Notes: generated by a model not told the origin, from the sequence alone. 44,589 bases of DNA from Candidatus Poribacteria bacterium (GCA_007571355.1 RKRO01000509.1:1-44589), one strand, 5' to 3'; shown: positions 7,484 through 44,589, counted from the stretch's first letter. Numbers and translations: made by a program.

Positions 7484-7499
7484 GGGAGGGATCAAAACG

Positions 7500-8780: not shown

Positions 8781-8806
8781 GTTTTCGGGTTCCAGCAGTG
8801 ACAAAA

Positions 8807-8845
8807 GACACGGGCGGAGTTGAAACTCCGCCCGTGTCTTTATTT
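8807..8845. terminator. bidirectional rho-independent terminator between the convergent OMP gene and rplQ
   Basis: Perfect 14-bp stem GACACGGGCGGAGT/ACTCCGCCCGTGTC with loop TGAA. TTTATTT follows on the plus strand and TTTTGT on the minus strand. Confidence 0.85.
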
Positions 8846-8879
8846 CAACGTCTTTATTTTCACCCGTTAATGAATGCCA

Positions 8880-9284: not shown

Positions 9285-9317
9285 CGTCTTCCTCCATGTA
9301 TGCGTTATCGTGAAGAG

Positions 9318-10337: not shown

Positions 10338-10603
10338 TGATTCCTCCTATGGGATTAAACGAAGTATTAGCACACAGATGAACTGGGGACAGTGTTTTGT
10401 AAGGCTACACATTTGCCACTTCCTAATTCTGTGTCGGAGTCTTATTATTGGACATCCCTGATTCCCACGATTTTTCTAATCAAGGTCTCTTCTGCTTGCA
10501 GCAAGCGGGTATGCGTTTAGCAACAATCCGATTTTGACAGGTGCCCACCGGTTATGGGAAAAGAGAAAATCGGAGCAGAGACCTAGTAATTAAAAATATG
10601 TGC

Positions 10604-11236
10604 CTATCGGGAGTAAAGTTCAATGATGAGTTGCGTCTCAAGGTCTACGGCGATCTGTTCTACCACCGGTGCGCCTTGAACACGTCCTTCTACTTTATCG
10701 GTGTCGACTTCGAGCCATTCGGGGGCACCCCGATGCTGGGCGTATTCTAATGCCTCCTGAATAGTCGCCAGATTTCGGCTCCGTTCACGTGGTGTGATGA
10801 CATCACCGATTTGCACGATATAAGAAGGAATGTTAACTCGCTTACTGTTAACAGTGAAGTGGTTATGCTTCACGAGTTGACGCGCTTGATTGCGAGAGGT
10901 GGCGAACCCGAGCCGGTAAACGACATTATCTAAGCGGCGTTCAAGAAAACTAATTAAATTCTCACCAGCAATACCTGATTGGCGTGCGGCTTTGAAATAG
11001 TAGTTCCGAAATTGTTTCTCAAATACACCATAAGTACGTTTAACTTTCTGTTTTGCTCGTAGCTGTCGACGGTAGTTGTCCCTACCGCGGCGCGGTGGGG
11101 TCTGTCCGTGTTGTCCAGGTGGATAACTCCGGCGTTCAAACGAACATTTTGGACCGTTACAGCGCCGTCCCTTCAAAAATAATTTTTCGCCTTCGCGGCG
11201 GCATAATTTACAAACTGAATCTAAATATCTGCTCAT
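10604..11236 (-). CDS. rpsD: 30S ribosomal protein S4
   Basis: 210 aa, starting MSRYLDSVCKLCRREGEKLFLKG. Conserved position in the operon. Confidence 0.96.
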   Translation of the reverse strand: MSRYLDSVCKLCRREGEKLFLKGRRCNGPKCSFERRSYPPGQHGQTPPRRGRDNYRRQLRAKQKVKRTYGVFEKQFRNYYFKAARQSGIAGENLISFLERRLDNVVYRLGFATSRNQARQLVKHNHFTVNSKRVNIPSYIVQIGDVITPRERSRNLATIQEALEYAQHRGAPEWLEVDTDKVEGRVQGAPVVEQIAVDLETQLIIELYSR

Positions 11237-11254
11237 TCGATTTCCTCAGCGTCC

Positions 11255-11626
11255 TCAAACCCGTCGTCTCTTCGGGGGACGACATCCATTGTGGGGGATA
11301 GGTGTCACATCTTTCATCAAGCTGATTTCCAGACCTGCAGCGGCGAGTGCTCGTATAGATGACTCGCGCCCGGATCCAGGGCCTTTAACTCTAACCTCCA
11401 CGCGTTTCATGCCGTGATCCATTGCCCGGCGTGCGCAGGCTTCGGCAGTCTGTTGTGCCGCAAACGGTGTTGACTTCCGTGAACCCGTGAAAGTCATCCC
11501 CGCATTCGCCCAAGCAACGGTGTTTCCATTTAAATCTGTAATTGTAATAATCGTGTTATTGAAGGTCGCTTGAATATGTGCGATACCTTCAGGAACGTTC
11601 TTGCGTTCTCTTCTTCTACCACGCAA
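11255..11626 (-). CDS. rpsK: 30S ribosomal protein S11
   Basis: Contains [21 protein letters not shown] start with AAGGAG 7 nt upstream. Confidence 0.95.
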
Positions 11627-11742
11627 AACGGTTCTCCTTTCTTATGAGTGGTTGCCAGTTGCCAGTACGGTTTTCTACGAAAAACCTTTCAGTTGACAAC
11701 TATTCTGCTGATGACTGACAACTGATGGTACTCTTAACACTA

Positions 11743-12135
11743 CTAGCCACTCTTGCGTGCTGTCTCTTTGGCTTTTCTGCCGACAGAGATCGTCCGCGCT
11801 TTTCCTTTACGGGTTCGCGCATTCGTATTCGTGCGCTGACCACGGACGGGCAACTGCCGCCGGTGACGTAAACCGCGATAACTATTGATGTCCATCAGGC
11901 GTTTGATGTTCTGATCGACTTCGCGTCGCAAGTCTCCCTCAATTTTGTAGTTTTGAATCTTGTCCCGGAGTAGGCTAATCTCGTTTTCTGCGAGGCTATC
12001 AACTTTCTTCCCCGGATCAATACTAAGGTCATTGACGATTTGCGAGGCAGTGTAACGGCCGATACCGTAAATCGCTGTCAGGGCAATATCGATCCGTTTT
12101 TCTCGGGGCAAATCAACCCCTGCTATCCTTGCCAT
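11743..12135 (-). CDS. rpsM: 30S ribosomal protein S13
   Basis: Starts [26 protein letters not shown]. Confidence 0.96.
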
Positions 12136-12205
12136 GCGTCTCCTCCATTTCTGGGTGCCTCTGGATTCTCCAAGGTTCGGAGTATCATCCGGAGGTATGA
12201 ACCTG

Positions 12206-12322
12206 TTATCCTTGTCGCTGTTTGTGCTTCGGGTTTGAAGGACAAATAACTCGAATAACGCCTTTTCGCTTAATAATTTTGCACTGGGAACACATCTTTT
12301 TAACAGAAGGTCTGACTTTCAT
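12206..12322 (-). CDS. rpmJ: 50S ribosomal protein L36
   Basis: Absent from the ORF track because it is under 60 aa. Manual translation gives [38 protein letters not shown] (38 aa) with a TAA stop. Confidence 0.93.
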
Positions 12323-12347
12323 AGTATCCTCTTTCAGCAAAAAGTGC

Positions 12348-13682
12348 TTAACGCCTTCTACCTTTCAGTTTACGATCTTTAAGGAATCCTTCATAATGGC
12401 GGACTGTCAAGTAAGATTCGATTTGTGACATTGTATCCAATACGACCCCTACAACAATCAAGATAGAAGCACCGTCCACCATGGTAGCTCCGATATTGAG
12501 GCGTGCTGTGATAATCATTGGGATCACGGCGATAGCGGCGAGAAAGACTGCGCCGGGCAGCGTGATCCGTGTGAGTGTCGTATTGATATAATCTGCTGTC
12601 TGTTTGCCTGCCCGGATACCCGGGATAAAACCGCCATATTTTTGCAAGTCCTCAGCCATTTGGACCGGGTTGATTTGTACGGCTGTGTAAAAATAGGTGA
12701 AACCGATGATTAATAACGCATAAAAGGTAAGCCACAACGGTGTCCCTGTCTGAACGAGAGCTAATGCCCCAGCTCGCCACTCCCAATCTGCTGGCAGGAA
12801 ACTAAGTGCTGTCTCAGGAAATTGAATAAGTGTAATCGCAAAAATGATTGGAATCATACCGGCTGCATTAACGCGGAGTGGCAGGTGTGTTGATTGTCCA
12901 CCAATCACTCTACGTCCACGTATCTGCCTACCGTATTGGACTGGAATCTTCCGAACAGACAACGTGATAAAGACAGTCCCCGCAATCGCTACAATGATGA
13001 GTATAACGAGAACCGCGAGGTGTGCGATCCCAAATTCCGGTCTCTCAAAAAGACTGTTTATGACTGTGGTAACCCCACCTGGTAAACCTGCGATGATCCC
13101 AACGGTAATAATGAGCGAAATGCCTTGCCCAATGCCGCGCTCTGTGATCTGTTCACCGAGCCACATAACAAAGGATGTTCCGGCCGTAAGGGTTAGGACT
13201 ACTAGAAAATGCCACCATAAATTCGGATTGCGGACAATTTCGCCTGCTTGACCGGTAATGGTTTCTGGATTCCGCAAGACGATACTAATCGTTATACCTT
13301 GGATGATGCTAAGTATAACAGTCCCGTATCTTGTGTACTGCGTCATCTTTTTTCTACCATCGGGTTCTTTGGAGAGTTTTTCCAAAGAAGGCACGATGAC
13401 ACCGAGGAGCTGCATAATGATTGAGGCACTAATATAAGGTTGTATACCGAGTGCGAAAATAGTCATCTGACTAAACGCGCCCCCGGAAAACAGGTCTATG
13501 AACCCAATGACATTGCCCCCACGTTCCATGAGTTGTTGAAAAAACGCTTCAAGTGCCACATCGTCAATACCGGGCAATGTAATGTGTGCACCGAGGCGGT
13601 AGACAATCAAGAGCAACGCTGTAAAAATGAGGCGTTTTCGCAATTCTGGGATTTTAAAAGCGTTTTGGAATGCCTTAATCAC
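12348..13682 (-). CDS. secY: preprotein translocase subunit SecY
   Basis: 444 aa, 10-TM pattern, starts [21 protein letters not shown]. Conserved position after rplO. Confidence 0.96.
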
Positions 13683-13712
13683 TTATTTTATATCCTCCTC
13701 GTTTACAGCCTC

Positions 13713-14189
13713 TCAAGCAGCATTCTGGGTATTGCCGTGTCGTCCAAGCACCTCAGTGGTACCACCTCTGGACTCAATTTTCTCAATCGCTGATTTTGAA
13801 AAACGGTGTGCTTGTACTTTTAATTGTTTTTCGAGTTCGCCATCCCCAAGTATCTTGATCAGGGCGTTCTTCCGTTTGATTAAGCCTGCTTCGCGAAGGG
13901 ATTCAGGGGTTACCACTGCAGTATCGGCGAAAAGGTTGAGTGCTTCTACGTTGATAATATCGTATTCGAGGCGTTTGTGTCCGGTACGCCGGGGGCCGCG
14001 CTTCGGAAGTCGGCGCACGATCGGCATCTGTCCACCTTCAAACCAAGCTGGTATCGAACTGCCTGCTCTCGACTTTTGTCCCTTATGACCGCGACCACAG
14101 GTCTTCCCCCAACCTGAACCAGGCCCTCTGCCAACTCGCTTTCGTGCGCGTTTCGCACCCGCCGCGGGTTTCAGTTCATTTAATTTCAT
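13713..14189 (-). CDS. rplO: 50S ribosomal protein L15
   Basis: Starts MKLNELKPAAGAKRARKRVGRGPGSG. I chose ATG 14189 (GGAG 9 nt upstream) over the ORF-track TTG at 14240. Confidence 0.93.
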   Translation of the reverse strand: MKLNELKPAAGAKRARKRVGRGPGSGWGKTCGRGHKGQKSRAGSSIPAWFEGGQMPIVRRLPKRGPRRTGHKRLEYDIINVEALNLFADTAVVTPESLREAGLIKRKNALIKILGDGELEKQLKVQAHRFSKSAIEKIESRGGTTEVLGRHGNTQNAA

Positions 14190-14243
14190 TTGGCTTGCTC
14201 CATTCCTTACATGGCTATTCCGCTGATTGCTGATTGCCAATTT

Positions 14244-14756
14244 TTAGCGTTTCTGGCGTAATTCTTCAACCGATAAATCTCGTAAACGTGCGACTTCATT
14301 AATATCCTTGAGGTTTTTCAATCCGAGCATCGTTGCTTCAGCGATATTTTTCACGTTTCGTGAGGATAAGCATTTCGTCAGCGCGTCTCGGACCCCCGCA
14401 AATTCGAGGATCGCGCGCGTCGCGTGCCCAGCAATGATCCCTGTTCCGGGGCTTGCCGGTTTCAGCAAAACTTTCGCGGATTTAAATTCGCAGGTAATTT
14501 CATGCGGAAGTGTCCCGTTGGTAATAGGCACCCGAATCAGGTTTTTTCGTGCATCGGCGAAACTTTTTCGGAGTGCCCCAGCGACTTCGCTCGCGCTACC
14601 GAATCCGATACCGACAATACCGTCGCGATTTCCAACAACCGTCAGCGAGTTAAAGCTTGGCGTACGCCGCCCTTTACCGACCCGCATCACGCGGTTAATC
14701 GTAATCATACGTTCCTCAAATTCAAATTCATCGGGGTTGATTCTTTCTTTCTGCAA
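14244..14756 (-). CDS. rpsE: 30S ribosomal protein S5
   Basis: 170 aa. Contains VMRVGKGRRTPSFNSLTVVGNRDGIVGIGFG. Confidence 0.95.
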   Translation of the reverse strand: MQKERINPDEFEFEERMITINRVMRVGKGRRTPSFNSLTVVGNRDGIVGIGFGSASEVAGALRKSFADARKNLIRVPITNGTLPHEITCEFKSAKVLLKPASPGTGIIAGHATRAILEFAGVRDALTKCLSSRNVKNIAEATMLGLKNLKDINEVARLRDLSVEELRQKR

Positions 14757-14826
14757 AAAACTCTCCTATCCGGTTCAGTTTCTGTTCCACCGCTATGGGC
14801 GGTGCAGGAACCGGTTTGCGGTGCGT

Positions 14827-15195
14827 TTAGAACTTCAAACCGCTTGCTCTCGCTGCTTCTGCAAGGGCTTTGATACGTCCATGATAGAGATGCCCACCCC
14901 GATCAAAGACGACCACCTCAATTCCTTCCTGCTTGGCTTTTTGTGCGATAAGTGTACCAACGCTCTCCGCGGCCGCTATATTTCCACCGTTCGGCAAAGA
15001 TGCTTTCAACTCAGGTGACAGAGTAGAGGCTTCGGCAACCGTTACGCCAAGTTCATCATTAATCAACTGTACGTATATATGTTTAAGACTTCTGAAAACG
15101 GTGAGCCGCGGTCTTGTGCCTGTACCGCTAATCTTTTGGCGGACGCGCCTGCGCCGCCGTAGATGGTTCGACCGTTTCTTTTTTATAAGTGTCAA
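14827..15195 (-). CDS. rplR: 50S ribosomal protein L18
   Basis: 122 aa. TTG start with AAGGAG 5 nt upstream. Contains [20 protein letters not shown]. Confidence 0.94.
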
Positions 15196-15278
15196 GGGAT
15201 CTCCTTATTACCGTGGGCGCACGCTCTATTTCATAAGGCTCGGAAATTACACCTTATCGCGTACAAGACAGAGTACCA

Positions 15279-15848
15279 CTAACCAACGGCAGCTTTCCCC
15301 TCTTTATCAGGGACGCGCTCGCCATCGTAGCGGATACCTTTACAAGGTTTATACGTATCCGGTTTACGGATTTGACGAATAGTCGCTGCAACCTGTCCAA
15401 CAAGTTGTTTATCAATACCCCTAACGATGATAGGGGTGTGTGCTTGACCGTCTATGGTTTCAGAGGCTTCAACATTTAACGTTATGCCTTCAGGCGGTGT
15501 GTAAGTAACAGTGTGTGAATAACCGACATCAAGCACTAGATCCTTATCACGGTTGACTTCCGCGCGGTAGCCTGTACCTACGACTTGCAGTTTTTTTTCA
15601 AAACCGTCTGAAACACCTGTAACCATATTTGCGATGAGGCTCCGCGCCAAACCGTGTAAGGCCTTGTACTGTTTAAGTTCACTCTTTCTTTGGACGGTTA
15701 GAACGTTCTCTTCAAGCGTCACATCAATTCCGTCTGGGAGTTCCCAATTCAGGTTCCCTTTAGGGCCCTCTACTTGTACATCGTTCTGATTTAAAGCAAC
15801 TTGTACTTTGTCGGGCAACGGAATCGGTTTGAGTCCAATACGTGACAT
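15279..15848 (-). CDS. rplF: 50S ribosomal protein L6
   Basis: Starts MSRIGLKPIPLPDKVQV. I took the internal ATG 15848 as the start. Confidence 0.93.
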   Translation of the reverse strand: MSRIGLKPIPLPDKVQVALNQNDVQVEGPKGNLNWELPDGIDVTLEENVLTVQRKSELKQYKALHGLARSLIANMVTGVSDGFEKKLQVVGTGYRAEVNRDKDLVLDVGYSHTVTYTPPEGITLNVEASETIDGQAHTPIIVRGIDKQLVGQVAATIRQIRKPDTYKPCKGIRYDGERVPDKEGKAAVG

Positions 15849-15893
15849 GCTATTTCTCCAAATGCGTTGAGAGCTATGTACAACCACAAAACT

Positions 15894-16295
15894 TTACCAG
15901 ACGTAACATAACACCTCGCCGCCGATCTTCTCCTTGCGGCACTCCGGTGTGGTTTTTATGCCGTTGGATGTTGATAAAATAGCGACACCGAGTCCGCCGT
16001 AAACACGTGGTAGGCTATCAGATTTAGCATAAATCCGCCTTCCCGGTTTACTAATACGTCTGAGGTTTGTGATGACCTTCTCTTTTTTGGTATTTCCGTA
16101 TTTCAAATAAATTCTTAAAATCCCCTGTTTCCCATCATCAAGCAGACGATAGTTTCGGATGAAACCTTCTTCAGTCAAAATTCGCGCTATTTCCGCTTTG
16201 ACTTTTGAAGAGGGGATTTCAACGCGTTCATGTCCTGCCATGTTGGCATTGCGGATACGTGTCAGCATATCTGCAATCGGATCGGTCATCGACAT
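15894..16295 (-). CDS. rpsH: 30S ribosomal protein S8
   Basis: Starts [20 protein letters not shown]. Confidence 0.96.
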
Positions 16296-16382
16296 GAAAG
16301 ATTCTCCTTATTTCGTTCTCTGTTGTGAATAGCCGCTGTACGCTTTGTGCATTTGTTGTTGGGCTACACAGGTTTCCGTTTT

Positions 16383-16568
16383 CTACCAACTAGCCTTGCG
16401 GACCCCAGGAATTCTACCTGCCCGAGCGAAGAGACGGAAACAGATACGACACAAGTTAAACTTGCGAAGATACCCGCGCGCCCTTCCGCAACTTTGGCAA
16501 CGGTTATATTGTCGAGTTCGGAACCGCGGGGTTCGCTTCTGTTTGGCAATCCATGCTTTACTTGCCAC
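16383..16568 (-). CDS. rpsN: 30S ribosomal protein S14, short zinc-binding (type Z) form
   Basis: 61 aa with [20 protein letters not shown] (CxxC...CxxC). Confidence 0.93.
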
Positions 16569-25424: not shown

Positions 25425-27548
25425 TTACGTATTATGATTCGTTGATGAAACGATGTCCTCCATTACGTTTGTGGGGACTTCGTTGTAATGTGCAAACTCC
25501 ATAGTGTAGTTTGCCCTACCTTGTGTAAGTGATCTAAGGGTTTTGACGTACCCAAACATCTCTGAGAGGGGGACATCAACCCGGATAACTTGAATTCGAG
25601 ATTTCGCCTGCATTTCTGTTTCACGTATCTGTGCACGACGCGCATTCAAATCGCCAATAACTTTACCGAGGTATTCGTCTGGGACGATCACCTCAACTTT
25701 CATAATTGGCTCAAGCAATAATGGGGTCGCACGTTTCAAGGCATCTTTGAACGCCATTGACCCTGCAATGGAGAACGCCATTTCTGATGAATCCACTGCA
25801 TGGTATGAACCATCAACCAACTTCACTGCGACATCAACGACCGGGTAGCCGGCAAGAATCCCAACGTTCATAGCGTTTTCAATGCCTTTTTTCACTGCCG
25901 GGATGTATTCTTGAGGAATTACGCCACCTTTGATTTCGTCGATGAATTCAAAACCACTCCCTTTTTCAAGCGGTTCAACTTCAATCACAACGTGACCAAA
26001 TTGACCTCTACCCCCTGATTGACGTACAAATCTTGCTTCAGCATTGACAGGCTTGCGGACAGTTTCTCGATAGGCAACTTCCGGGTTACCTACATTCGCT
26101 GAGACATTAAACTCGCGCACGAGTCTATCAACGATAATTTCAAGGTGAAGTTCACCCATACCTGACAATAAGGTTTGTCCGGTCTCAGGATCCTGATGAA
26201 CTTTAAAGGTTGGGTCTTCTTCAGCGAGTTTAGAGAGGGCGAGGTTAAGTTTGTCGATATCGGATTGCGTACGGGGTTCAATTGCAATGGACATTACTGG
26301 AAGCGGGAACACCATGTTTTCTAAAGTGATATGCGCCTTCGGATCACAAAGTGTGTCCCCCGTTGAGAGGTTTTTTAAACCGATTGCAGCAGCAATATCG
26401 CCAGCGTAAACAGCTTGTATCTCTTCCCGCTTGTTGGCGTGCATCTGCATCAAGCGGCCTATCCGTTCGTGCTTTCTCGTTTTGGTATTGTAGAGCGTAT
26501 CGCCTTTTTTAAGTACACCGGAGTAGACCCGTAAATAGGTGAGTTTACCAACGTGCGGATCTGTCATAATCTTGAACGCTAACGCACAGAACGGTTCGTT
26601 CTCGTTCGGATGGCGAGTGATCTCTTTTTCTGTTTTCGGGTCAGTTCCAACGATTGGGGGCACGTCTGTCGGTGCAGGTAGATAAGAGACGATTCCATCT
26701 AAGAGCGGTTGGACACCTTTATTCTTTAGAGCGGTACCGCAGAGAACAGGTACAATATTACCAGCGACCACGGCGTTGCGGATTCCTGTTTTAATTTCTT
26801 CGGGCGAAATTTCGACACCGTCTAAGTATTTTAGCAAGAGGCCTTCATCGCAATCGGCGATAGCCTCTAACATCTGATCGCGATATTCGTGTGCCATATC
26901 CTGCATCTCTTCTGGGATGTCTGTCTCTTGGATAACGGTGCCATCGTTGCCAGCATTTGTGCCAATGTTCCAAATTTGACCTTTCATAGAGATGAGGTCT
27001 ACAATCCCTGTGAATTGTTCTGCTGAACCGATTGGCAGCTGCACTGGAATTGCGTTGGCACCGAGCCGCCCTTCCATCATTTCGACAGTGCGGAAGAAGT
27101 CAGCACCGGTTCTATCCATTTTATTAACGAATGCGATCCGAGGGATTTCGTATTTATCTGCTTGCCGCCATACGGTTTCGGATTGTGGTTCAACACCGCC
27201 GACAGCGCAGAAAACAGCGACTGCACCGTCAAGCACGCGAAGTGAACGTTCAACTTCTACGGTAAAATCAATATGCCCCGGTGTATCAATAATGTTTATG
27301 TGATGTTTTTTCCAGTGACATGTCGTTGCGGCACTTGTAATCGTGATACCGCGCTCTTGCTCTTGAACCATCCAGTCCATAGCAGTTGTACCATCATCTA
27401 CATCACCGATTCGATAGAGTCTACCGGTATAATACAAAATGCGTTCAGTTACGGTAGTCTTGCCGGCATCGATGTGTGCCATGATACCGATATTTCGCAT
27501 GTGGGGCAGTGCTAAGCGTTGTGGAATGCTATTTTTCGTATCTGCCAC
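25425..27548 (-). CDS. fusA: elongation factor G
   Basis: Contains [20 protein letters not shown] and NKMDR. I placed the start at GTG 27548 (AAGGAG 10 nt upstream), giving 707 aa. The ORF-track extension to 27815 would overlap rpsG and was rejected. Confidence 0.95.
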
Positions 27549-27612
27549 GGTTGAACGACTCCTTTTTAATTTTACGGATGTATATATTTCGGCGGGAACC
27601 GCACCTACACTT

Positions 27613-28083
27613 TTACCAACGATAATGCGCAAAAGCGCGGTTGGCTTCCGCCATTCGATGTTGTTCCTGTTTTCTACGGATCGCGCCACCTTCGTTACGC
27701 GACGCTTCAAGTATTTCACCGGCAAGGCGTTCTGCCATACGTCTTTCACCCCGCGCACGAGCGGATTGAATAATCCACGTGAAAGCCAAACGTTGTTTCC
27801 GTTCAGCCTTGACATCTACGGGAACTTGATAGGTCTGGCTACCTACACGGCGAGGCCGAATTTCCAGCACCGGTTTTACATTATTAATCGCTTGACGGAA
27901 CACGGTGAAACCTTCTTCATTCGTTCGGTCTTCAATGATCTTGAAACTTTCATACAAGATGGCTTGGGCGGTACTCTTCTTACCATCCAACATGAGGTTG
28001 TTGATAAATTTTGATACCAGTTTACTGTTATAAGTTGCATCAGGACTGACATCCCGTTTACTAATGTTTCCACGCCTCGGCAT
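27613..28083 (-). CDS. rpsG: 30S ribosomal protein S7
   Basis: 156 aa, starting [15 protein letters not shown]. Confidence 0.96.
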
Positions 28084-33895: not shown

Positions 33896-35023
33896 GTGAA
33901 ACGCAAATTAAAACAACTTTCAGTTCTTACCGTTTTGGTGGTCTTTCTATTCAGTCTCGCGCCGGATATTGTGGAGAGCCGCCGCGGCGGGCGGAGTTTC
34001 AGTCGTAGCCGGAGTTTTAGTCGCAGCTCAACCCGGCGAAGTTACAGCGCGCCGAAGCGCCCCACGAGCAGCACACGGAGTCAGAGCAGTACCAACCGCT
34101 CTTATAGCAGCCCCCGATCGACAACACGGACAACCCGCAGCACAGGTAGCACCTACAACAGAAGTAGTTCAACGAGAACTACCGGCACGCGTACCAGCAC
34201 GGCAGCACGACAAAGGCAGACAGCTACAAATAGGGCGAAAGCGACACCGCCGAATTCAACCCGAAGCACAACGGCGACGCGGAACGCATCCCGCACGCAA
34301 CAACGCGCAACGACTGCACAAAATCGGAAACAGGTCCGGCAACTCAAGGCGGAAAACCGCACTTTGAAACGCCAGGTCAGAACAACCGATCGTCGAACTG
34401 CAAAGGCCCGTCGAGAACAACGTTCTACGATTAATATCAACAACTACGGTGGTTATTACCCGGTCATGGGGTACTCGATGTACAGCATGGCAGCCTCCAT
34501 GGCGTTTAATAACCTGATGTTCGGTATCTATTTCCATGATTACTACAACCACGCGATTCAACGAAGTTATCTCTGGCACTATCACCATCCGAAATACGAT
34601 CGATCCCATTGGAGTGCCGAAAAGCAAGCCGAATATGATTTTTATAAGGAGTACTACGAAAGTCAAGGTATTGAACCGAACTCGAATTACGTCGATCCCG
34701 GCACAAATCGCGATGAAGACTACGCAGCAAGTTATGTTGAAGCAAACCCCGATGAATTTTATGGCGATAATGTGGAGGTCTTCACTGTTGACGAACTACC
34801 CGATGAGGCAGCAATAAAACAGGAACTCCTCGCAGCCGCCTCAGACACACCAACGGTAACAGCAACCGCTGCGACAACAGCACCCGCGCGAGCACCACCA
34901 GCCACACAGACTGTTATTGTAAAGAAAAAGACCTCCGGGGCAACTTGGTTCCTCCTTATTTTTGGAAGTCTCCTTGTTGTGGGTGTTATTATGTTAGTAA
35001 TGTATAACAAGGGTTACTTTTAG
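33896..35023 (+). CDS. hypothetical secreted protein: signal peptide, about 150 aa of Arg/Ser/Thr-rich low complexity, Tyr/His-rich domain, C-terminal TM anchor
   Basis: 375-aa ORF. GTG start after AAGGAGG. Contains RSFSRSRSFSRSSTRRSYS...TRSTTATRNASRTQQ, and the C-terminus is ATWFLLIFGSLLVVGVIMLVMY. Confidence 0.6.
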   Translation: MKRKLKQLSVLTVLVVFLFSLAPDIVESRRGGRSFSRSRSFSRSSTRRSYSAPKRPTSSTRSQSSTNRSYSSPRSTTRTTRSTGSTYNRSSSTRTTGTRTSTAARQRQTATNRAKATPPNSTRSTTATRNASRTQQRATTAQNRKQVRQLKAENRTLKRQVRTTDRRTAKARREQRSTININNYGGYYPVMGYSMYSMAASMAFNNLMFGIYFHDYYNHAIQRSYLWHYHHPKYDRSHWSAEKQAEYDFYKEYYESQGIEPNSNYVDPGTNRDEDYAASYVEANPDEFYGDNVEVFTVDELPDEAAIKQELLAAASDTPTVTATAATTAPARAPPATQTVIVKKKTSGATWFLLIFGSLLVVGVIMLVMYNKGYF

Positions 35024-35030
35024 GGTGATA

Positions 35031-35663
35031 ATGATGGCACTATTTGGTAGAGGCAAAAAAGATGGGAGATCCCTGTTCGGTAGACGCAAGAATGCCGAAT
35101 CTAAAAAGCCAGTACGGCATGAATTGGTCGATATTCCGATTAACAGTATGATTGAACTCTCCGATATCATCACTTATGAGAAGACTGGAGATACTTCACA
35201 TGCCTTCAAACTTGTCACGCGAAAAAAATATGAAGGCGAAAGCCTTCAGCGTTATATGTATCACATTCGAGACGCAGAAGAAGAAGTCGTACTTGGTGTT
35301 GACCATATCGCAGGGACAAAGGAGGAATACGAGGTTTCTCGCTGGATTGTTGATGATGAGTGCGCGCTCGGAGATCCGCTGCCCGATCACATGACGCTCT
35401 ATTTTCCTGATCCAGATAACGAAAACGAGGAAATTGCCGTTGCGTACACTCGACAGGATGTTGTGCCTGCAATCCTCACTGTTACCAATGCCCAGGGTGA
35501 AGAAAAATTTGACGTTGAATTGCACGAGTACGCCAGCAGTGATGATGCGTTTATGTCTATTGAACTCTGCGGGGATTGGCTAACCTTCTACACCGGTGTA
35601 CTTATCACGCGTTCTGATATAGAAATCTATCCAGCGATGGAGCCCGCGTCTGAAAGCAAATAG
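35031..35663 (+). CDS. hypothetical cytoplasmic protein (possibly DUF4178-like)
   Basis: Starts 8 nt after the upstream stop. I preferred ATG 35031 to GTG 35025. The DUF4178 resemblance is from memory only. Confidence 0.5.
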   Translation: MMALFGRGKKDGRSLFGRRKNAESKKPVRHELVDIPINSMIELSDIITYEKTGDTSHAFKLVTRKKYEGESLQRYMYHIRDAEEEVVLGVDHIAGTKEEYEVSRWIVDDECALGDPLPDHMTLYFPDPDNENEEIAVAYTRQDVVPAILTVTNAQGEEKFDVELHEYASSDDAFMSIELCGDWLTFYTGVLITRSDIEIYPAMEPASESK

Positions 35664-39093: not shown

Positions 39094-39865
39094 CCTTCAG
39101 AAGTGGGCGGATGCTATTAACAACTTACTCCGCATTATTGAGAGGAGTGAACGGAAACTCGGATACTTTCAGAATAGAGTGAAACAGGCGAAATTCATGG
39201 ATCGCCCGAATCAACGTAAGATTCGCACGGCTGGTGCGCAAGTTGGGGCGCATTCGGCACAACTTGAGGGTTTGCGCAGTGAATTGCGACAATTGGAACG
39301 CCTCTACAGCGGTGGCATCCACCTCCGGCAAACCACGGAGAACGAACTTCGCCAAATTTGGGGCTGGATCAACCGACCCGGCATCAGGAACCTGCTTTAT
39401 GCTGCGCGGGTCTCATTTGAAACATTTCTCGACGATTGGCACCGTTGGGCAGCCGACGCGGAAACACTGCCGCTCGCTATTGAAATCCGAACGACCCGTT
39501 TCCTTATCGGGTTTACCCTTCTTAAACGCGACATGGACACTGTTACGATTAGGTTCGTTATCATTCGACCAGACTATCGCGCTCGCGGCTACGGCACGGA
39601 CACACTCGTTGAGACTGTCCGATATGCCTTTGAGGTACTAGGTGCTGCGCACATTACCTTAGAAGTCTTGGCAGACAATGGACCTGCACTTACCTGTTTT
39701 GAAAATGCAGGATTCCAATATCTCAGTTACACCGATACAGCAGGACAGGTATACACGATGGGGATTGAGCACAGCGAATGGGTCGGTGATAGAGTGGTAG
39801 ATGAACAGAATATTATGCCACAGTTGAGTGCCCCGCTCAAATTGTTCTTTGATTCCGATGAGTGA
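39035..39865 (+). CDS. GNAT-family N-acetyltransferase with an approximately 110-aa coiled-coil N-terminal domain
   Basis: ATG 39035 follows GGAAGGGAG. The GNAT motif A is FVIIRPDYRARGYGTDTLVETV. It overlaps the rsgA 3' end by 59 nt. Confidence 0.7.
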   Translation: MNETQISEERTETREDANADLQKWADAINNLLRIIERSERKLGYFQNRVKQAKFMDRPNQRKIRTAGAQVGAHSAQLEGLRSELRQLERLYSGGIHLRQTTENELRQIWGWINRPGIRNLLYAARVSFETFLDDWHRWAADAETLPLAIEIRTTRFLIGFTLLKRDMDTVTIRFVIIRPDYRARGYGTDTLVETVRYAFEVLGAAHITLEVLADNGPALTCFENAGFQYLSYTDTAGQVYTMGIEHSEWVGDRVVDEQNIMPQLSAPLKLFFDSDE

Positions 39866-39889
39866 TCTTCTCATAAAATTGTAATGTAT

Positions 39890-39928
39890 AAGGGACAGAA
39901 GTGACACGTTTCTGTTCCTTATTTTTTT
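39890..39928 (+). terminator. rho-independent terminator after the GNAT gene
   Basis: Stem AAGGGACAGAA/TTCTGTTCCTT (11 bp, one G.U pair), 9-nt loop, then ATTTTTTT. Confidence 0.8.
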
Positions 39929-40032
39929 GTAGAATGACTTGTAGATTAGGGTTTGCCCATTTCGTTTGCCTAATTCTATAAACATTCTTGCTTTCAAGAG
40001 CGGTGGGGTTGTTTCCGAATCCAACGCATCAC

Positions 40033-40398
40033 CTACAGAGACAAAGTGTGTCGTGGTGCCACCTGTTGTCTCAATAATCGCTTTGGGGGCATCTTCGAAT
40101 CACGAGGGAAGATCGGACCAAGCAGGCGACACAATTCAAGAGGAACAGACGGGGGCCAGCCGAGCGGACAGAATAGGTTGTTGTCTATGATGGTGCGGTA
40201 GAAGTCGCTTGGTTGGAGCGCGTGTCCGGTGTCTGCCCCCGGTGCTGCTGTTGGACGCACTGCCTCGCTCTGAACACCCGTGACAGGCACGGCGGCCTCC
40301 ACCTTCGCATTCAAAGAACGATACACACCGATAACAATGAGTATGAGAAACGCGCCCGCTATCACAAGACAACAGGCACGTCGGTTGAAATGTAACAC
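40033..40398 (-). CDS. hypothetical single-pass membrane protein (last gene of the envelope operon)
   Basis: 121-aa ORF with a GTG start and weak SD. One TM helix (CCLVIAGAFLILIVIGVY). FYRTIIDNNLF loosely resembles the motif after the TM helix of GspC/PilP-type proteins. Confidence 0.4.
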   Translation of the reverse strand: MLHFNRRACCLVIAGAFLILIVIGVYRSLNAKVEAAVPVTGVQSEAVRPTAAPGADTGHALQPSDFYRTIIDNNLFCPLGWPPSVPLELCRLLGPIFPRDSKMPPKRLLRQQVAPRHTLSL

Positions 40399-40422
40399 TT
40401 TTTTTCCCGAGTGCTGCCAACA

Positions 40423-41484
40423 TTACTCTGAAGAATGCCAACCATCCGGACTTGATGAGCAATCGCCCCATTCACTTGTGCAGATGTGGTAGGTCACACC
40501 GCAGTGGATACAGGTCACATCATCCGGATACCAACAGTAGTCCTCTGGACAGCCATCCTCATCCCCTTCATCGGGCGGATCGTTTTCGTCCTCGTCCTCA
40601 TCATCCTCATCATCGTCCTCATCACAAGACGAACACCCCTCCGTGCAATAACTACAATCGGGCGTGTTGTCTACAGGATCACTCGGACTGCTGCCCGAAC
40701 CACAGGAATCGGGATGCCCAGAACACGCATAAACCGACGCTTGATTGCAACTCGAACAGGTCGCCAGTAACGCATGACTCGACGGAACACCATAACAATT
40801 CCAATACGTACCGCCCTCTTGACAATACATATTCGGACAGGTCACATAATGGGCTGTCGGTGAGGAAACTCCGGTTTGTTTGCAAAGACTACAAACGTTC
40901 GTTTCTTTCACTTCCCATGACCCTGAATCGCTTGTCGTATGTGTATACGAGGGATCCGACGTGTCATTATGGACAATCCAGTCTCCTCCTGACCATCTGG
41001 CGAGTTTTCTAACGGCTTGACCGCTCGCGCTCCAATTGTAAGTGCCAACATCATCGGACCAATCGGAAACGTTATTAACAGTGAACGAGAAGTCGTCGTT
41101 TTCTGCCGTATCGTACATCGGAACCCCCAGCGGATATAAGATCCCCATGTAGCCAATCTCCTCTGTCGGTGCCTCCCCATACTGGGGGTCTGCCATGTGA
41201 TTCTCGCCGTTGATCGTGATGGATGTGATTTTGAAATCTATCCAACCGAGTCCCATTGCCGTTCCACTTATCGTCATCGTAACGGGATCGGGGTGTGCGG
41301 GTTCCACGGTGTGGTTTTCATGGATATAATACGTATACGTCCCTGATGCATTTGACGATATCGACGGACCACTACTGATCGCTAAATACGGATCGGGTGC
41401 ACCGATGATCGGGATGCCCCAAACATAGAGACCTACGCAAAGAAATACGAAAAAGAGCGTGCACAGTAAAATCAATGTTTTCAT
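40423..41484 (-). CDS. secreted Cys-rich, highly acidic protein of unknown function
   Basis: 353-aa ORF. GGAGG lies 6 nt upstream of ATG 41484. Signal peptide present. The C-terminal 150 aa has 27 Cys, including CSLC, CSSC, CSYCTEGCSSC and CIHC, plus an acidic run CDEDDDEDDEDEDENDPPDEGDEDGC. Confidence 0.65.
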   Translation of the reverse strand: MKTLILLCTLFFVFLCVGLYVWGIPIIGAPDPYLAISSGPSISSNASGTYTYYIHENHTVEPAHPDPVTMTISGTAMGLGWIDFKITSITINGENHMADPQYGEAPTEEIGYMGILYPLGVPMYDTAENDDFSFTVNNVSDWSDDVGTYNWSASGQAVRKLARWSGGDWIVHNDTSDPSYTHTTSDSGSWEVKETNVCSLCKQTGVSSPTAHYVTCPNMYCQEGGTYWNCYGVPSSHALLATCSSCNQASVYACSGHPDSCGSGSSPSDPVDNTPDCSYCTEGCSSCDEDDDEDDEDEDENDPPDEGDEDGCPEDYCWYPDDVTCIHCGVTYHICTSEWGDCSSSPDGWHSSE

Positions 41485-41505
41485 TCTAAACCTCCAGAAG
41501 GGTCT

Positions 41506-42345
41506 TTAATCATTCAAGGGTCGGGGTCTTGGAACTTTCCCACCAATGCCCGTGCCAATAAGATGCCCGAGTCCAAAGTCTACAAGGGCTTGATCGAATG
41601 CCTCTCTTGAGCGCTGAGCGACTCTGCTTCGTGCGGCTCTCCCGGATGCAGCGGCTGTAACGAGCGGATACGGCCCTTGGGCAGCGTCTACAATCCGATA
41701 CATTTCAGCGCGGATCTCTTCCAATTCTGCAAATTTCCCTGCTGCATGAAGACCGCGCCGTTGCATTCTCAATTCCTTATATCTTCGCGCTTGCTCGGGG
41801 TTGGGTGCGAATGCGGTAATCGTATGGACTTGGATGTAAGGCTCACCAATCTTGTTGATGACAGGTTCACCATTTGCATCTCGTTTGACAACCCAGGCAT
41901 CATCCCAGATATATTCATAGCCTCTCGGCGGTGGGGGAACACCTGCTTTTTCAAACCACGCCGACATCGCCCGTTTCGCCTCTGCTGGCGAGAATTGCGA
42001 CAGATATTTCGCAAGGAACGACCCCGGACGCGGTGCCAAATCACCTGCATCGTCTGCTGGAGGTGCCGGTGTTGTCTGCGGTGCCTGTGCGGCCGCTACC
42101 TGTTCTTGCGCCCCGTCGTGCCATGTCCCATCCGCATGGGTATGTCCGCCTTGTTGCGCTTCAGGCGTTTCCTGCACAACAGGCGATTCTGTTTTCGGTT
42201 TTTCCGGCGGTTTCGCTAAGGGTTCTACGGGTGTGTATGTCACAATCGGTTCGGGCGGGGGTTGTGTCGCGAGGTAATAAATCCCCACACCTGCAATCGC
42301 CACAAGGAACACCGCGAGCGGTATCCAATACTTTTTGATAAACAT
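41506..42345 (-). CDS. signal-anchored protein with a Pro-rich linker and a His cluster (GGHTHADGTWHDG)
   Basis: 279-aa ORF. AGGAG lies 6 nt upstream of ATG 42345. One N-terminal TM helix. Confidence 0.65.
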   Translation of the reverse strand: MFIKKYWIPLAVFLVAIAGVGIYYLATQPPPEPIVTYTPVEPLAKPPEKPKTESPVVQETPEAQQGGHTHADGTWHDGAQEQVAAAQAPQTTPAPPADDAGDLAPRPGSFLAKYLSQFSPAEAKRAMSAWFEKAGVPPPPRGYEYIWDDAWVVKRDANGEPVINKIGEPYIQVHTITAFAPNPEQARRYKELRMQRRGLHAAGKFAELEEIRAEMYRIVDAAQGPYPLVTAAASGRAARSRVAQRSREAFDQALVDFGLGHLIGTGIGGKVPRPRPLND

Positions 42346-42356
42346 ATTTCGCTCCT

Positions 42357-42641
42357 TTATTTGACAACTTCTGCACCGAACCCCGCATCTGCCAACGCGG
42401 ATATCAGCACATCACTTTTAACGTTACTTTTTACCACAACTTTTCGGTCTAAAACCGAGACCGAGACAATCTCTAACTCACCTTCAAGGTTTTCAAGTGC
42501 AGACCGCACTTTTTCGGCGCAGCCCGGTCAGTCCATCTTTGGGACACCCAACGCTATCACTTCTCGCGTGGGACTGCACCCGATACACAGCACACAGGCG
42601 AGCAAGAACAACACAAACGATATACGGGTTAGGGGTTCCAT
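42357..42641 (-). CDS. HMA (heavy-metal-associated) domain lipoprotein with in-frame TGA at the first Cys of MxCxxC; candidate selenoprotein (UPGC)
   Basis: Manual translation gives MEPLTRISFVLFLLACVLCIGCSPTREVIALGVPKMD[TGA]PGCAEKVRSALENLEGELEIVSVSVLDRKVVVKSNVKSDVLISALADAGFGAEVVK. GGAGG lies 7 nt upstream of ATG 42641. The TGA is at 42530..42528 and the TAA at 42359..42357. It is missed by the ORF track because both halves are under 60 aa. Confidence 0.6.
42495..42511 (-). promoter_or_regulatory. SECIS-like stem-loop downstream of the in-frame TGA
   Basis: The minus strand reads AAGUGC-GGUCU-GCACUU and starts 16 nt after the TGA. As I recall it, the loop and 3' arm (GGUCUGCAC) match the apical E. 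coli fdhF SECIS string. Confidence 0.45.
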
Positions 42642-42835
42642 GCCGGCACCTCCCACATCTCACACGATGCCTGCAATAACGGGCTCACCCGCTCACAATC
42701 GGGCGGTTTCACATCGCGGATGCATGGGGTGCGCGCGGAACACTCGGACATCGCTGCACGTGCGCGGTATGTGAACACCACCGACACGCCGATAACCCCA
42801 CACAACAAAACAATCAAAAACAATGATCGGAACAT
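42629..42835 (-). CDS. small membrane-anchored protein with four Cys
   Basis: 68 aa counted from ATG 42835 (GGAG 8 nt upstream): MFRSLFLIVLLCGVIGVSVVF...SECSARTPC...PDCERV...ASCEMW. The stop overlaps the start of the HMA gene. Confidence 0.55.
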   Translation of the reverse strand: MFRSLFLIVLLCGVIGVSVVFTYRARAAMSECSARTPCIRDVKPPDCERVSPLLQASCEMWEVPAWNP

Positions 42836-42963
42836 CGATGCACTCCTAAAACGGTTGAGCCCAGCTGTCGGAGGTATGCAACAGCGAAAAAGAAGACGCG
42901 GCAATTCTCCGTCAGTGAACTACAGTCCTATAGCATATAACAAAAACGGCTGTCGTGCAACAC

Positions 42964-43012
42964 AAAAAACCCGCTATGCAGTGCCTTGTCTGTGACAAAG
43001 GCAGCACGCGGG
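42964..43012 (-). terminator. terminator-like compound hairpin with U6 inside the operon leader
   Basis: The minus strand reads CCCGC-GTGC-TGCCTTTGTC-ACA-GACAAGGCA-CTGCATA-GCGGG followed by TTTTTT. It lies about 130 nt upstream of the first CDS. Confidence 0.45.
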
Positions 43013-43073
43013 AACGAAAGGTTTCCAGAACTATACGAACCTTGTGAAGTAAAATACTTAACGCGTGTGAAGT

Positions 43074-43083
43074 GGGGGGGGGG
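43074..43083. repeat. G10/C10 homopolymer tract in the leader
   Basis: Ten consecutive G on the plus strand. Three overlapping short minus-strand ORFs cross it. Confidence 0.95.
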
Positions 43084-43290
43084 CCAAGGGCCACAACAAA
43101 ACAGGAGCAGACACGCTACACTCAGTAGACGCAAAAATACCTACCAACGCACTTATGCAAACTTCTCCTGAAGAACCCAAAAATCTGATGCCCATTACTA
43201 CCACTCCATTAATATCGACCTCAGTTGTATATCGGGGTTACAAACCCCTCCTACAAGCGTTTCTCGGAAAGATAGAAACTTATGGAATTA

Positions 43291-43319
43291 ATTATACCCA
43301 CGCAAAAGGGGTTTGTCAA
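43291..43319 (-). promoter_or_regulatory. perfect consensus sigma-70 promoter (TTGACA-17-TATAAT) driving the envelope operon
   Basis: On the minus strand, TTGACA is at 43319..43314 and TATAAT at 43296..43291. Confidence 0.65.
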
Positions 43320-43556
43320 GTTTAAAATTTAAAAAAGCGTTTTTTTGGGGATTCATGTTTTACACAAAAATTATTCTCGATTATTTATCAAATTCACGCC
43401 GTTTTTTGCACTTGATAAATAATTTTCTCATTTTTTTCGCAAAAACGTGCAAAAGTGCATCCGAAAATGTGTTTAAGTGAATCATTGTCATTTTTTAATG
43501 GCGATGATATCCTAATACCGTTTTATCGCGGTAGAGAGAAAAAGGAGGAAATTGTT

Positions 43557-43589
43557 ATGTTAGCAAACCAGAGGAGGTGTGACACTTAG
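43557..43589 (+). CDS. possible 10-codon leader peptide (MLANQRRCDT)
   Basis: AAGGAGG lies 7 nt upstream of the ATG. Tandem AGG AGG Arg codons. The stop falls inside the first palindromic element. Confidence 0.3.
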   Translation: MLANQRRCDT

Positions 43590-43624
43590 TGTTACGCCCT
43601 TGTGGTGTGACACAAGTGTCACAC
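43577..43624 (+). promoter_or_regulatory. paired GTGTGACAC-type palindromic elements (operator or alternative RNA hairpins)
   Basis: GTGTGACAC-TTA-GTGTTAC at 43577..43595 (imperfect) and GTGTGACAC-AA-GTGTCACAC at 43605..43624 (perfect 9+2+9). Confidence 0.5.
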
Positions 43625-43632
43625 GCTTTGGA

Positions 43633-43671
43633 AAGGGGCGGGGGGCTGAAACCCCTCTGTCCCTTATTTTT
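43633..43671 (+). terminator. strong rho-independent terminator/attenuator
   Basis: 13-bp stem AAGGGGCGGGGGG / CCCCTC(T)GTCCCTT, loop CTGAAA, then ATTTTT. Confidence 0.75.
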
Positions 43672-43739
43672 GATAGGTGCCGTTTTTTTACCCTGAAAAC
43701 AGCATCCGCCAAATTTTCATGGCATATTTTTCTATCTTT

Positions 43740-43748
43740 TGGTATACT
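43740..43748 (+). promoter_or_regulatory. extended -10 promoter candidate (TGGTATACT)
   Basis: TGn plus TATACT, with no good -35 box. It is followed immediately by the palindrome TACACTT-AGAA-AAGTGTA at 43755..43772. Confidence 0.35.
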
Positions 43749-43847
43749 ATCCGGTACACTTAGAAAAGTGTAATCTTTGCCAACATGTTGTTAATTTTTC
43801 AATCCTGCTAAACTACAAACAGAGACAAAAAGGAGGAGGTACCTATT

Positions 43848-43931
43848 ATGCTACGTTTGAACCACGCTACACTTCATCTAAAGACATGCAGTCCACGGCG
43901 ATGGTGCCTCTGCCCGTTATCGACGATTTGA
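43848..43931 (+). CDS. possible 27-aa Cys-containing peptide (MLRLNHATLHLKTCSPRRWCLCPLSTI)
   Basis: Strong SD AAGGAGGAGG 8 nt upstream of the ATG. No other support. Confidence 0.3.
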   Translation: MLRLNHATLHLKTCSPRRWCLCPLSTI

Positions 43932-43981
43932 TTGAAATGGCATAGGCACAGTCGCCTCACACGTGAGGAGTCGCTCTATCT

Positions 43982-44356
43982 ATGCCCAAATTTAATCCTG
44001 AATTTTGGGAAATTCCGGTACCCCCGGAATATTTCGATCAGTTTACGACAGAAGATTATCTTTGGTATCGAGCACCTGATGACGGATATACCATAGCCCG
44101 TCGTCTCAAACGTCAAGCGGTCTTAGAACAAATTCATCAGATTATCGCAAACGACCTAACCCACCGCCAAGCCGAGTGCGTCCAACTTTACTTCTACCAA
44201 GGCAAGACCCAAGAAGAGATTGGCTATATTCTTGGCATCTCCCGGCGTGTTGTGAGCCAACACCTCTTCGGTATCACACGAAACGGGAAACAGATAGGCG
44301 GCGCGATTAACAAGATCCGCAAGATGTGCCGAAAACAGGGAATAGAATTTCCTTAG
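43982..44356 (+). CDS. stand-alone sigma-70 region-4-like HTH protein
   Basis: 124-aa ORF. The C-terminal LTHRQAECVQLYFYQGKTQEEIGYILGISRRVVSQHL matches the sigma-4 HTH pattern. No region 2 is present. The GAGGAG SD lies in the hairpin CCTCA-CACG-TGAGG (43955..43968). Confidence 0.65.
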   Translation: MPKFNPEFWEIPVPPEYFDQFTTEDYLWYRAPDDGYTIARRLKRQAVLEQIHQIIANDLTHRQAECVQLYFYQGKTQEEIGYILGISRRVVSQHLFGITRNGKQIGGAINKIRKMCRKQGIEFP

Positions 44357-44563
44357 TGCTAAAGAGTCAATTTATCTATAAACGCTACAAGTGCAATTCA
44401 ACGCGAGAGGAACCTTCAACGGTTACTTCTCGCTTGAAAGCACTTCTGTCCCACCCACAAAATAAAATCATCTAACCGCCAAAACATACCTTGCCAAAAA
44501 GGGATATTTCGTGATATTGTAACCTATATCATATTTGGTATTTCTGCCGAAAAGGGGAACACT

Positions 44564-44589
44564 ATGGCGGTTCAGATTGCAATTATCGG
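44564..44589 (+). CDS. 5' end of a gene truncated by the window edge (MAVQIAII.., possibly a Rossmann-fold N-terminus)
   Basis: The ATG is preceded by AAGGGGA. Only 8 codons are visible. Confidence 0.3.

Follow-up and report, generated by a model that had tools for sequence, protein, structure and literature searches.

Poribacteria are dominant uncultured symbionts of sponges, and their mode of interaction with the host is largely unknown. Here, we describe a five-gene unit, p1 to p5, carried on a 44,589-nucleotide stretch of DNA from a Candidatus Poribacteria bacterium (GCA_007571355.1 RKRO01000509.1:1-44589; hereafter, the window means this whole stretch). The unit exists as an accessory element, it is conserved, and its products are directed to the envelope. 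Its constant core is not the set of five genes but a pair, p3-p4, consisting of a membrane-tethered protein with a histidine motif and a secreted, Cys/His-rich partner. The family of cassettes to which the pair belongs is large, modular, and recombining. Tentatively, and with somewhat less than even confidence, we propose that the family comprises diversifying envelope or secreted-protein cassettes in which the tethered p3 docks p4, export proceeds by a GspC-like route, and a selenocysteine (Sec)-containing HMA protein acts as an optional helper.

A Constant Tether and Its Secreted Partner

The p3 protein is signal-anchored. An earlier note on this DNA, made from the sequence alone, had described a Pro-rich linker and a residue cluster in p3; both are present, and the cluster reads GGHTHADGTWHDG. 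Across 20 aligned full-length relatives, H70, D72, and H76 never vary, and H68, G73, T74, and H80 rarely do. The resulting motif, HxHxDG(T)WHxxxH, comes after the transmembrane (TM) anchor and a linker rich in (E/K)P. An AlphaFold2 (AF2) model of p3 reaches a predicted local distance difference test (pLDDT) score of 74.8 overall and 85-98 over the C-domain (residues 110-260). Foldseek comparison of this model with the PDB and BFVD yields no neighbor at E<0.001, and p3 has no match in Pfam, NCBIfam, PHROG, or PADLOC.

The p3 family is extensive. A profile search of 1.84 billion representatives, with clusters defined at 50% identity, recovers 473 clusters at E<=1e-3 and 294 at E<=1e-10. Many of these clusters align only via the N-terminal 80-100 residues or only via the C-domain, and a Pfam scan of 100 family members reveals no consistent domain. 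A constant p3 N-terminal module is joined to many unrelated C-termini of 100-150 residues.

The partner, p4, is likewise built from conserved and variable parts. Common to the 13 p4 orthologs are a beta-rich N-domain, an invariant module (C198-x2-C201-x10-H212-x3-C216-x4-C221...C261), a variable low-complexity stretch, and a C-terminal Cys/His module. The earlier note had counted 27 Cys in CxxC-type spacings in the C-terminal region of p4, together with a 25-residue run of Asp and Glu. Five CxxC motifs and an acidic run are indeed there; the last 160 residues hold 19 Cys, of 21 in the whole protein, and the run is 23 residues long. Searching with the Cys/His-rich half of a p4 ortholog returns 67 proteins, at least 7 of them from one 5.06-Mb contig and none with a Pfam domain. 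The p4 protein itself has no match in Pfam, the PDB, PHROG, or PADLOC, and a JGI metagenome scan for p4 relatives returned nothing. Alignment profiles of p3, p4, and p5 find no matches among PDB sequences.

Relative to orthologs at the related loci L002, L003, L006, and L008 (we number such loci L001 to L015), p3 is ~64-68% identical and p4 ~70-82% identical, and the alignments are free of stops.

A Modular, Recombining Family in Poribacteria

Source names are available for 2 of the 13 p4 homologs and for 8 of the 60 p3 homologs, and every one is Candidatus Poribacteria. So far, the cassette family has been found only in this sponge-symbiont phylum. A scan of GTDB representative genomes identified one locus only, and searches of the literature on Poribacteria in connection with selenocysteine, cysteine-rich proteins, or type II secretion turned up no account of the family.

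The arrangement of the pair is highly regular. Across L002-L010, 15 of 16 p3-type genes have a gene for a signal-peptide protein directly downstream, often overlapping, and at least 10 of these downstream proteins carry Cys/His modules. The p4-type partners have a variable N-terminal domain, in most cases ahead of modular C-terminal repeats rich in Cys and His. Other members come and go around this core: p5-like genes lie downstream of the pair in L003 (twice), L006, L008, and L010, and p1-like genes lie upstream of p3 in L002, L003 (twice), L005, and L006. The neighborhood is conserved in relatives, so the lack of synteny that the earlier note named as grounds for dismissing the unit does not apply.

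Signs of recombination are abundant. Two to five units, with fragments, occur in tandem in L002, L006, L007, L009, and L010; the last of these contains three successive p3-p4-p5 units plus fragments. Paralogs at the same locus share 76-96% nucleotide identity over the first 150-270 nucleotides of the p3 gene and are unrelated beyond. In L003, p3 N-terminal remnants precede p5 and other p3 genes. The same locus (6059..16415) shows a tandem duplication, with a period of ~5.3 kb, of the cassette together with an upstream HTH_3 gene and a downstream cupin gene; the p3/p4 pairs differ between the copies, the p5 and HTH genes are identical, and a DDE transposase adjoins the array.

Cassettes occupy five genomic contexts, and the regulators differ: sigma-70 in the window, sigma-54 with a bacterial enhancer-binding protein in L006 and L008, HTH_3 in L003, and a sigma-like protein in L010. 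Specifically, in L006 (5149..6470) and L008 (5319..6627), the gene for a sigma-54 enhancer-binding protein that lacks a receiver domain is found upstream of the cassette, with a near-consensus sigma-54 promoter, TGGCATGATACTTGC, on its downstream side.

A constant 5' module fused to unrelated 3' parts, variable C-termini of 100-150 residues, and tandem arrays in which truncated copies and leftover N-termini occur also bring to mind polymorphic toxin/immunity or contact-dependent competition systems. The notion would be that p3 supplies a delivery module with a variable effector, that the downstream gene supplies a protective or partner protein, and that the arrays hold orphan modules. We judge this reading highly improbable. 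Searches of Pfam, PADLOC, and PHROGs turned up no domain of the toxin, immunity, Rhs, CDI, or T6/T7 type; the N-terminal anchor of p3 is uncleaved and is not a secretion domain; and the downstream partner is large, secreted, and hypervariable, unlike immunity proteins.

An Accessory Segment with Its Own Promoter

The unit in the window is a discrete insertion or deletion. A related contig, L004 (~85% nucleotide identity), is collinear with the window: it matches up to 43417 and resumes at 39878, with 72 bp in between. Because L004 is collinear on both sides of this short interval, the promoter, leader, and five genes together constitute an indel (Table 1). It is bordered by a sigma70_r4-only gene on one side and a GNAT gene on the other, and its GC content is 0.503 versus 0.479 in the rest of the window, which is core chromosome (SecY, RpoA, EF-G, RsgA). 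Mobile-element borders were considered and rejected, as neither a target-site duplication nor terminal inverted repeats nor a transposase is seen at the junctions. A phage or plasmid origin was also rejected: nothing was found in IMG/VR contigs, PLSDB, PHROGs, or PADLOC. L004 possesses a distant p3/p4 pair at the opposite flank of this sigma70_r4 gene.

The sigma70_r4 gene specifies a 124-residue protein consisting of sigma-70 region 4 only (window 43982..44356; L004 10507..10881), and it adjoins the cassette on opposite sides in the two contigs. In L010, a 195-residue sigma-like gene (2292..2879; Sigma70_r2, 22.6 bits) heads the cassette array. Small sigma-like proteins are possibly linked to these cassettes.

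Transcription signals agree with those described earlier. The perfect TTGACA-17-TATAAT promoter lies inside the inserted segment and is the sole 12/12 match within 39500..44589. The leader that follows, put at about 450 nucleotides in the earlier note, measures ~449. A search of the leader against Rfam gave no family at the gathering score and chance-level matches only at E<5; with that null result and ordinary folding (z +0.72), a riboswitch or small RNA in the leader was rejected. A sigma-54 promoter in the leader was rejected as well, since no site has the correct GG-N10-GC spacing. The leader harbors a C10 tract (43074..43083, operon strand) that is the window's only homopolymer of at least 8 nucleotides. 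In the homologous leader of L005, the tract is C9, and it is flanked by the conserved blocks CACTTCACA, ATAAGTATT, CTTCACAAGGT, CCCGCGTGCTGCC, and GTGTTGCA. The C10 tract could mark a site of slipped-strand phase variation, or it could belong to a small open reading frame in the leader (ORF; 42928..43134). Finally, the inverted repeat ATTATTTATCAA-N20-TTGATAAATAAT sits 60-100 bp ahead of the -35 element and is a possible operator or regulator site.

The genes are tightly packed and co-directional, as had been claimed: p1 and p2 overlap by 13 nucleotides, and the gaps are 11 (p2-p3), 21 (p3-p4), and 24 nucleotides (p4-p5). The strong Shine-Dalgarno sequences previously ascribed to the genes are seen, as AGGAG or GGAGG, upstream of p1, p3, and p4. 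Terminator-like sites were looked for on the minus strand within the unit, and there are none. The five genes are probably co-transcribed. All of the products were expected to face the envelope, and each one indeed has exactly one hydrophobic segment, at the N-terminus (KD19 2.2-2.8), and none elsewhere. A 121-residue ORF (39659..40024) was considered as a sixth gene and rejected: it combines antisense sequence from the GNAT 3' end with the shifted frame of p5.

Table 1. Features of the five-gene unit. Coordinates refer to the window unless another locus is named.
Feature	Position	Strand	Description or basis
Whole cassette, 3.5-kb indel	39879..43416	-	Own promoter, leader, five genes; comparison with L004
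Perfect 12-bp inverted repeat	43380..43423	.	Straddles indel junction; putative operator
Sigma-70 consensus promoter	43291..43319	-	TTGACA-17-TATAAT, 12/12 match
5' leader, ~449 nt	42836..43284	-	C10 tract and blocks conserved with L005
p1	42629..42835	-	68-residue single-pass membrane protein, 4 extracytoplasmic Cys; ORF, Shine-Dalgarno, TM segment
p2	42357..42641	-	HMA-domain lipoprotein, putative selenoprotein; in-frame TGA at 42528..42530, first Cys of GMxCxxC
SECIS-like hairpin 3' of TGA	42500..42526	-	Contains GUGCGGUCUGCAC
p3	41506..42345	-	Signal-anchored protein; TM 7-26, Pro-rich tether, His hairpin motif, globular C-domain (110-260)
p4	40423..41484	-	Secreted protein; beta-rich N-domain (~30-195), Cys/His module (198-261), acidic run (288-310), C-terminal Cys module
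p5	39960..40398	-	GspC/PilP-like; annotated ORF 40033..40398; frameshift ~40080
TAA at HMA Sec codon	L008 6842 (= L011 2774), L012 2774, L013 755, L014 245, L015 101		

Optional Components and a Possible Metal Connection

The second gene, p2, had been noted as a TGA-containing HMA lipoprotein, and that description holds. Residues 33-88 match Pfam HMA PF00403 with 35.1 bits (cutoff 24.8; 1.8e-8), and sequence matches in the PDB include Atx1 (ScAtx1), CopZ, MerP, and the N-domains of HMA4 and RAN1, with Atx1/CopZ and MerP as the closest relatives of solved structure. A lipobox-like IGC is present. The in-frame TGA falls in the metal-binding loop, which would read K-M-D-U-P-G-C, with G-M-D-U-G-G-C as its L002 counterpart. 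L002 carries two copies of the HMA gene, and the TGA is kept in both. Of the 56 codons after the TGA, 23 are the same in the window and L002; another 19 show synonymous differences only, and 14 show non-synonymous ones. Because synonymous-only differences outnumber non-synonymous ones and the stretch contains no stops or frameshifts, the downstream frame is evidently under purifying selection and read through.

An RNA hairpin resembling a selenocysteine insertion sequence (SECIS) starts 2 nucleotides past the TGA. Its predicted stability is -14 kcal/mol (z -1.9; 4 of 200 shuffles are equally good), and its 3' arm falls in GUGCGGUCUGCAC, which is conserved across all homologs. Among the only 3 distinct sequences, the hairpin displays no compensatory changes. 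The GGUCUGCAC part of this element is also found in the SECIS of E. coli fdhF, the control sequence used here. The window contains no Sec machinery (SelA, SelB, SelD, or tRNA-Sec), and its sole tRNA is for Arg. Sec-containing hydrogenases are reported in Poribacteria (PMC13582414), and SelA/SelB occur in most sponge-symbiont bins (PMC5649159). On the present sequence evidence, the p2 lipoprotein is a credible selenoprotein.

The HMA gene is an optional part of the cassette. It is found, between p1 and p3, in the window, L002 (twice), and L008, that is, in 3 of ~10 cassette lineages; the cassettes of L003-L007, L009, and L010 do not carry it. In the L008 lineage, represented by GCA_026706025.1 and four assemblies from different runs, TAA replaces TGA, and the downstream frame is intact (Table 1). 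This TAA is a real allele, and the HMA gene of the lineage was probably inactivated recently. We found no HMA ortholog with a Cys codon at the TGA position, and a JGI metagenome scan for the HMA-SECIS DNA motif returned nothing.

The remaining small gene, p1, has no match in Pfam or NCBIfam. Its product is of the size and membrane topology previously given, 68 residues with one anchor; the Cys number of four requires correction, as there are 5, one of them inside the TM segment.

The composition of the products underlies the suggestion, made in the earlier note, of an extracytoplasmic module for handling metals or metalloids, or for redox chemistry. Under this proposal, the Sec-containing HMA protein would take up a soft metal such as Cu(I) or Hg(II) and pass it to the p3 His hairpin and p4 for sequestration or buffering in the envelope. 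Several observations fit: an HMA domain with UxxC that is translationally coupled to p1, the invariant HxHxDGxWH motif of p3, C2HC-like spacing in p4 (C198-x2-C201-x10-H212-x3-C216), and the cupin gene downstream in L003. Moreover, Sec-containing metal-binding families exist, among them NF041115 and NF045683, which p2 matches weakly and which are among the prokaryotic selenoproteins tied to heavy metals (PMC13188914). Against the proposal stand the restriction of the HMA gene to 3 of ~10 lineages, in one of which it bears the TAA in five assemblies; regulators that vary between loci; and large-scale paralogy, hypervariability of domains, and tandem arrays that contain orphans, features atypical of known metal homeostasis. 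The earlier observation that no P-type ATPase, RND pump, or MerR/ArsR regulator is visible extends to the 10 related neighborhoods and the window flanks, where we found no gene for a P-type ATPase, RND, CDF, MerT/MerA, or MerR/ArsR/CsoR. The unit is not a classical metal-resistance operon. We consider a metal or redox module weakly supported and unlikely; what keeps it in contention is its agreement with the His motif, the abundance of Cys and His, and the HMA-Sec protein.

A Damaged GspC-Like Gene

The last gene, p5, departs most from its earlier description as an intact 121-residue single-pass protein. Intact p5 homologs are 236-241 residues long and consist of a TM segment, the motif YRTIIDNNLFRPLGW, a ~60-residue beta domain, and a basic tail ending in SDWET..GDARLKNP.KW.L.RR. 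The window product is the front part of such a GspC-like protein: TM segment, YRTIIDNNLF-PLGW, and HR-type domain, in that order, without the C-terminal tail. A single-nucleotide frameshift in an A-run at ~40080 (CCAAAG in place of the expected CCAAAAG) ends the frame, and homology resumes in another frame to ~39960, as a second tblastn high-scoring segment pair. Where the tail would follow, the indel boundary and the GNAT terminator are found instead. The frameshift could be an assembly error. A 161-residue p5 in L010 stops right after the HR domain, at the same point as the window p5, so a short p5 may be tolerated.

Assignment to GspC derives from Pfam T2SSC (PF11356), which four independent p5 homologs match below threshold, always in the HR part of the model; the window p5 itself has no T2SSC match. 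Because these matches are consistent but fall below threshold, we call p5 GspC-like and not an established member of the family. The earlier statement that the HMA fold is the only recognizable one among the five products stands for p1, p3, and p4, which match no family, and is qualified for p5. A contig with identical p3 and p4 genes (L001, from JGI) carries an apparent fusion of p5 to a Cys module (2202..2321). We rejected this fusion as most likely an assembly chimera brought about by repeated Cys-rich sequence: the terminal 120 nucleotides match an internal stretch of p4 at 93% identity and are joined at p5 codon 91.

A Tentative Model and Its Difficulties

How might the components act together? 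In the diversifying-cassette reading that we favor, the constant p3 module would hold a variable docking domain across the periplasm, with the His hairpin binding a divalent metal either for structure or for docking. The variable p3 C-domain may recognize the variable N-domain of its own p4, a protein presumably stabilized via disulfides and/or Zn sites. Docked p4 could then enter a secretin-type export route by way of a GspC-like adaptor encoded in the same cassette. Optional help would come from p1 and the UxxC HMA lipoprotein, which would bring metal or thiol/selenol redox chemistry to the partner rich in Cys and His. The outcome would be a set of diversifying surface or secreted proteins that act in interactions with the sponge host, phages, or neighbors. 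The window copy may be only partly functional because its p5 is damaged.

Several points weigh against this proposal. No characterized homolog backs the proposed binding of p3 to p4, the export route, or the role in biology. The p5 homologs score 16.9-18.4 bits against T2SSC, where the cutoff is 27 (best E 1.5e-5; 3 of 5 members in one set; 18.4 bits for the L010 protein); the p5 profile finds nothing in the PDB; and neither the window nor the loci read contain a secretin gene (GspD/PilQ). The AF2 model of p4 is unusable (pLDDT 38.6). A metal-centered function would also accommodate the invariant His motif of p3, the high Cys/His content, and the HMA-Sec gene. Lastly, damage is not confined to the p5 of the window: p4 is split in L005 and L009, and TAA interrupts the HMA gene in L008. 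With frameshifts and truncations this common, many copies may be in decay.

Taken to its end, this last point would make the window copy a decaying remnant with no present function, a pseudogenizing island that merely resembles an operon. The p5 frameshift and truncation, the comparable damage just listed, and the many fragments in L010 speak for such decay. On the other side, p1-p4 are intact, the Shine-Dalgarno sequences are strong, and the promoter is perfect; p3 and p4 align without stops to their orthologs in four loci; synonymous changes exceed non-synonymous ones downstream of the p2 TGA; and the p5 lesion has a natural counterpart in the 161-residue protein of L010 or could stem from assembly. 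We regard the remnant explanation as improbable.

The diversifying-cassette reading also has a bolder form, which we hold to be doubtful. Here, the family would constitute a genome-wide "plug-in" system for secretion or display, in which one type of membrane tether, bearing a metal-binding His hairpin, is combined with hundreds of docking domains, each equipped with its own Cys/His-rich secreted partner and GspC-like secretin adaptor. Some cassettes would add a periplasmic UxxC selenoprotein helper, and the diversifying surface or secreted proteins would either be recognized by the sponge host, phages, or neighbors or help to evade them.

Other Features of the Window

Three regions outside the unit deserve mention. 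At 33896..35663, strong AT skew (+0.25) coincides with genes for two proteins that have no Pfam match, one of 375 residues (N-terminal signal, Ser/Thr/Arg-rich low-complexity sequence, C-terminal TM segment) and one of 212 residues. At 2793..3968, a 391-residue ORF aligns with the N-terminal portion of STT3 oligosaccharyltransferases (57 bits), a family that is uncommon in bacteria. Finally, in the 796-residue EF-G ORF (25425..27815), the GTPase domain begins at residue 106, and either the true start lies further downstream or the protein has an N-terminal extension of ~100 residues.

Significance and Relation to Known Systems

Because p1, p3, p4, and the layout lack detectable homology in Pfam, NCBIfam, the PDB, PHROGs, and PADLOC, we rate the unit as apparently outside the known kinds of system, a rating that reflects absent homology and not a demonstrated mechanism. 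The p3 family is a strong candidate for an envelope or symbiosis system that defines the lineage, given its hundreds of clusters, the lack of any detectable relative outside the phylum, a confidently predicted domain without PDB neighbors, an invariant metal-type motif, and modular recombination. The UxxC HMA lipoprotein would be an extracytoplasmic addition to the few known Sec-containing metal-binding proteins. Should the cassette prove to buffer metals instead, its multi-copy nature would make it an unusual case.

Among known proteins, p2 most resembles the HMA metallochaperones (CopZ/Atx1 and MerP; PF00403), with which it shares the HMA domain and GMxCxxC loop; its N-terminal export signal recalls MerP. 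As in known Sec-containing metal binders, a motif Cys is replaced by TGA, and a hairpin follows. Yet p2 is a lipoprotein with UxxC in place of the UxxU of NF041115, and it falls far below the cutoffs of that family (26.9 vs 95), of the MerT/CopZ fusion selenoprotein family NF045683 (17.1 vs 375), and of MerP TIGR02052 (26.7 vs 92.55). In contrast to mer and cop operons, no MerT, MerA, CopA, or regulator lies nearby, and p2 is an optional insert in an otherwise unrelated cassette.

GspC/PilP proteins (PF11356) and the p5 homologs have in common an N-terminal TM segment, a linker, and an HR-type beta domain of ~60 residues, which aligns to the C-terminal part of the T2SSC model. In the Dickeya type II secretion system, GspC is a determinant of substrate specificity. 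Unlike GspC, the p5 homologs have no PDZ or coiled-coil region; they end in a basic tail, and they occur one per cassette and not in a gsp operon.

TonB-type anchors share with p3 an N-terminal signal anchor, an (E/K)P-rich extended linker, and a C-terminal globular domain. The p3 protein differs in lacking TonB_C and SxxxH, in having no ExbBD nearby, in a linker that ends in a unique His hairpin, and in C-domains that vary among paralogs. Polymorphic toxin loci (CDI, Rhs, MafB) and the cassette both feature a constant N-module, variable C-ends, orphan arrays, and a linked downstream partner. In place of recognizable toxin, immunity, or delivery domains, however, the cassette offers small, membrane-anchored proteins joined to a large, secreted, Cys-rich partner.

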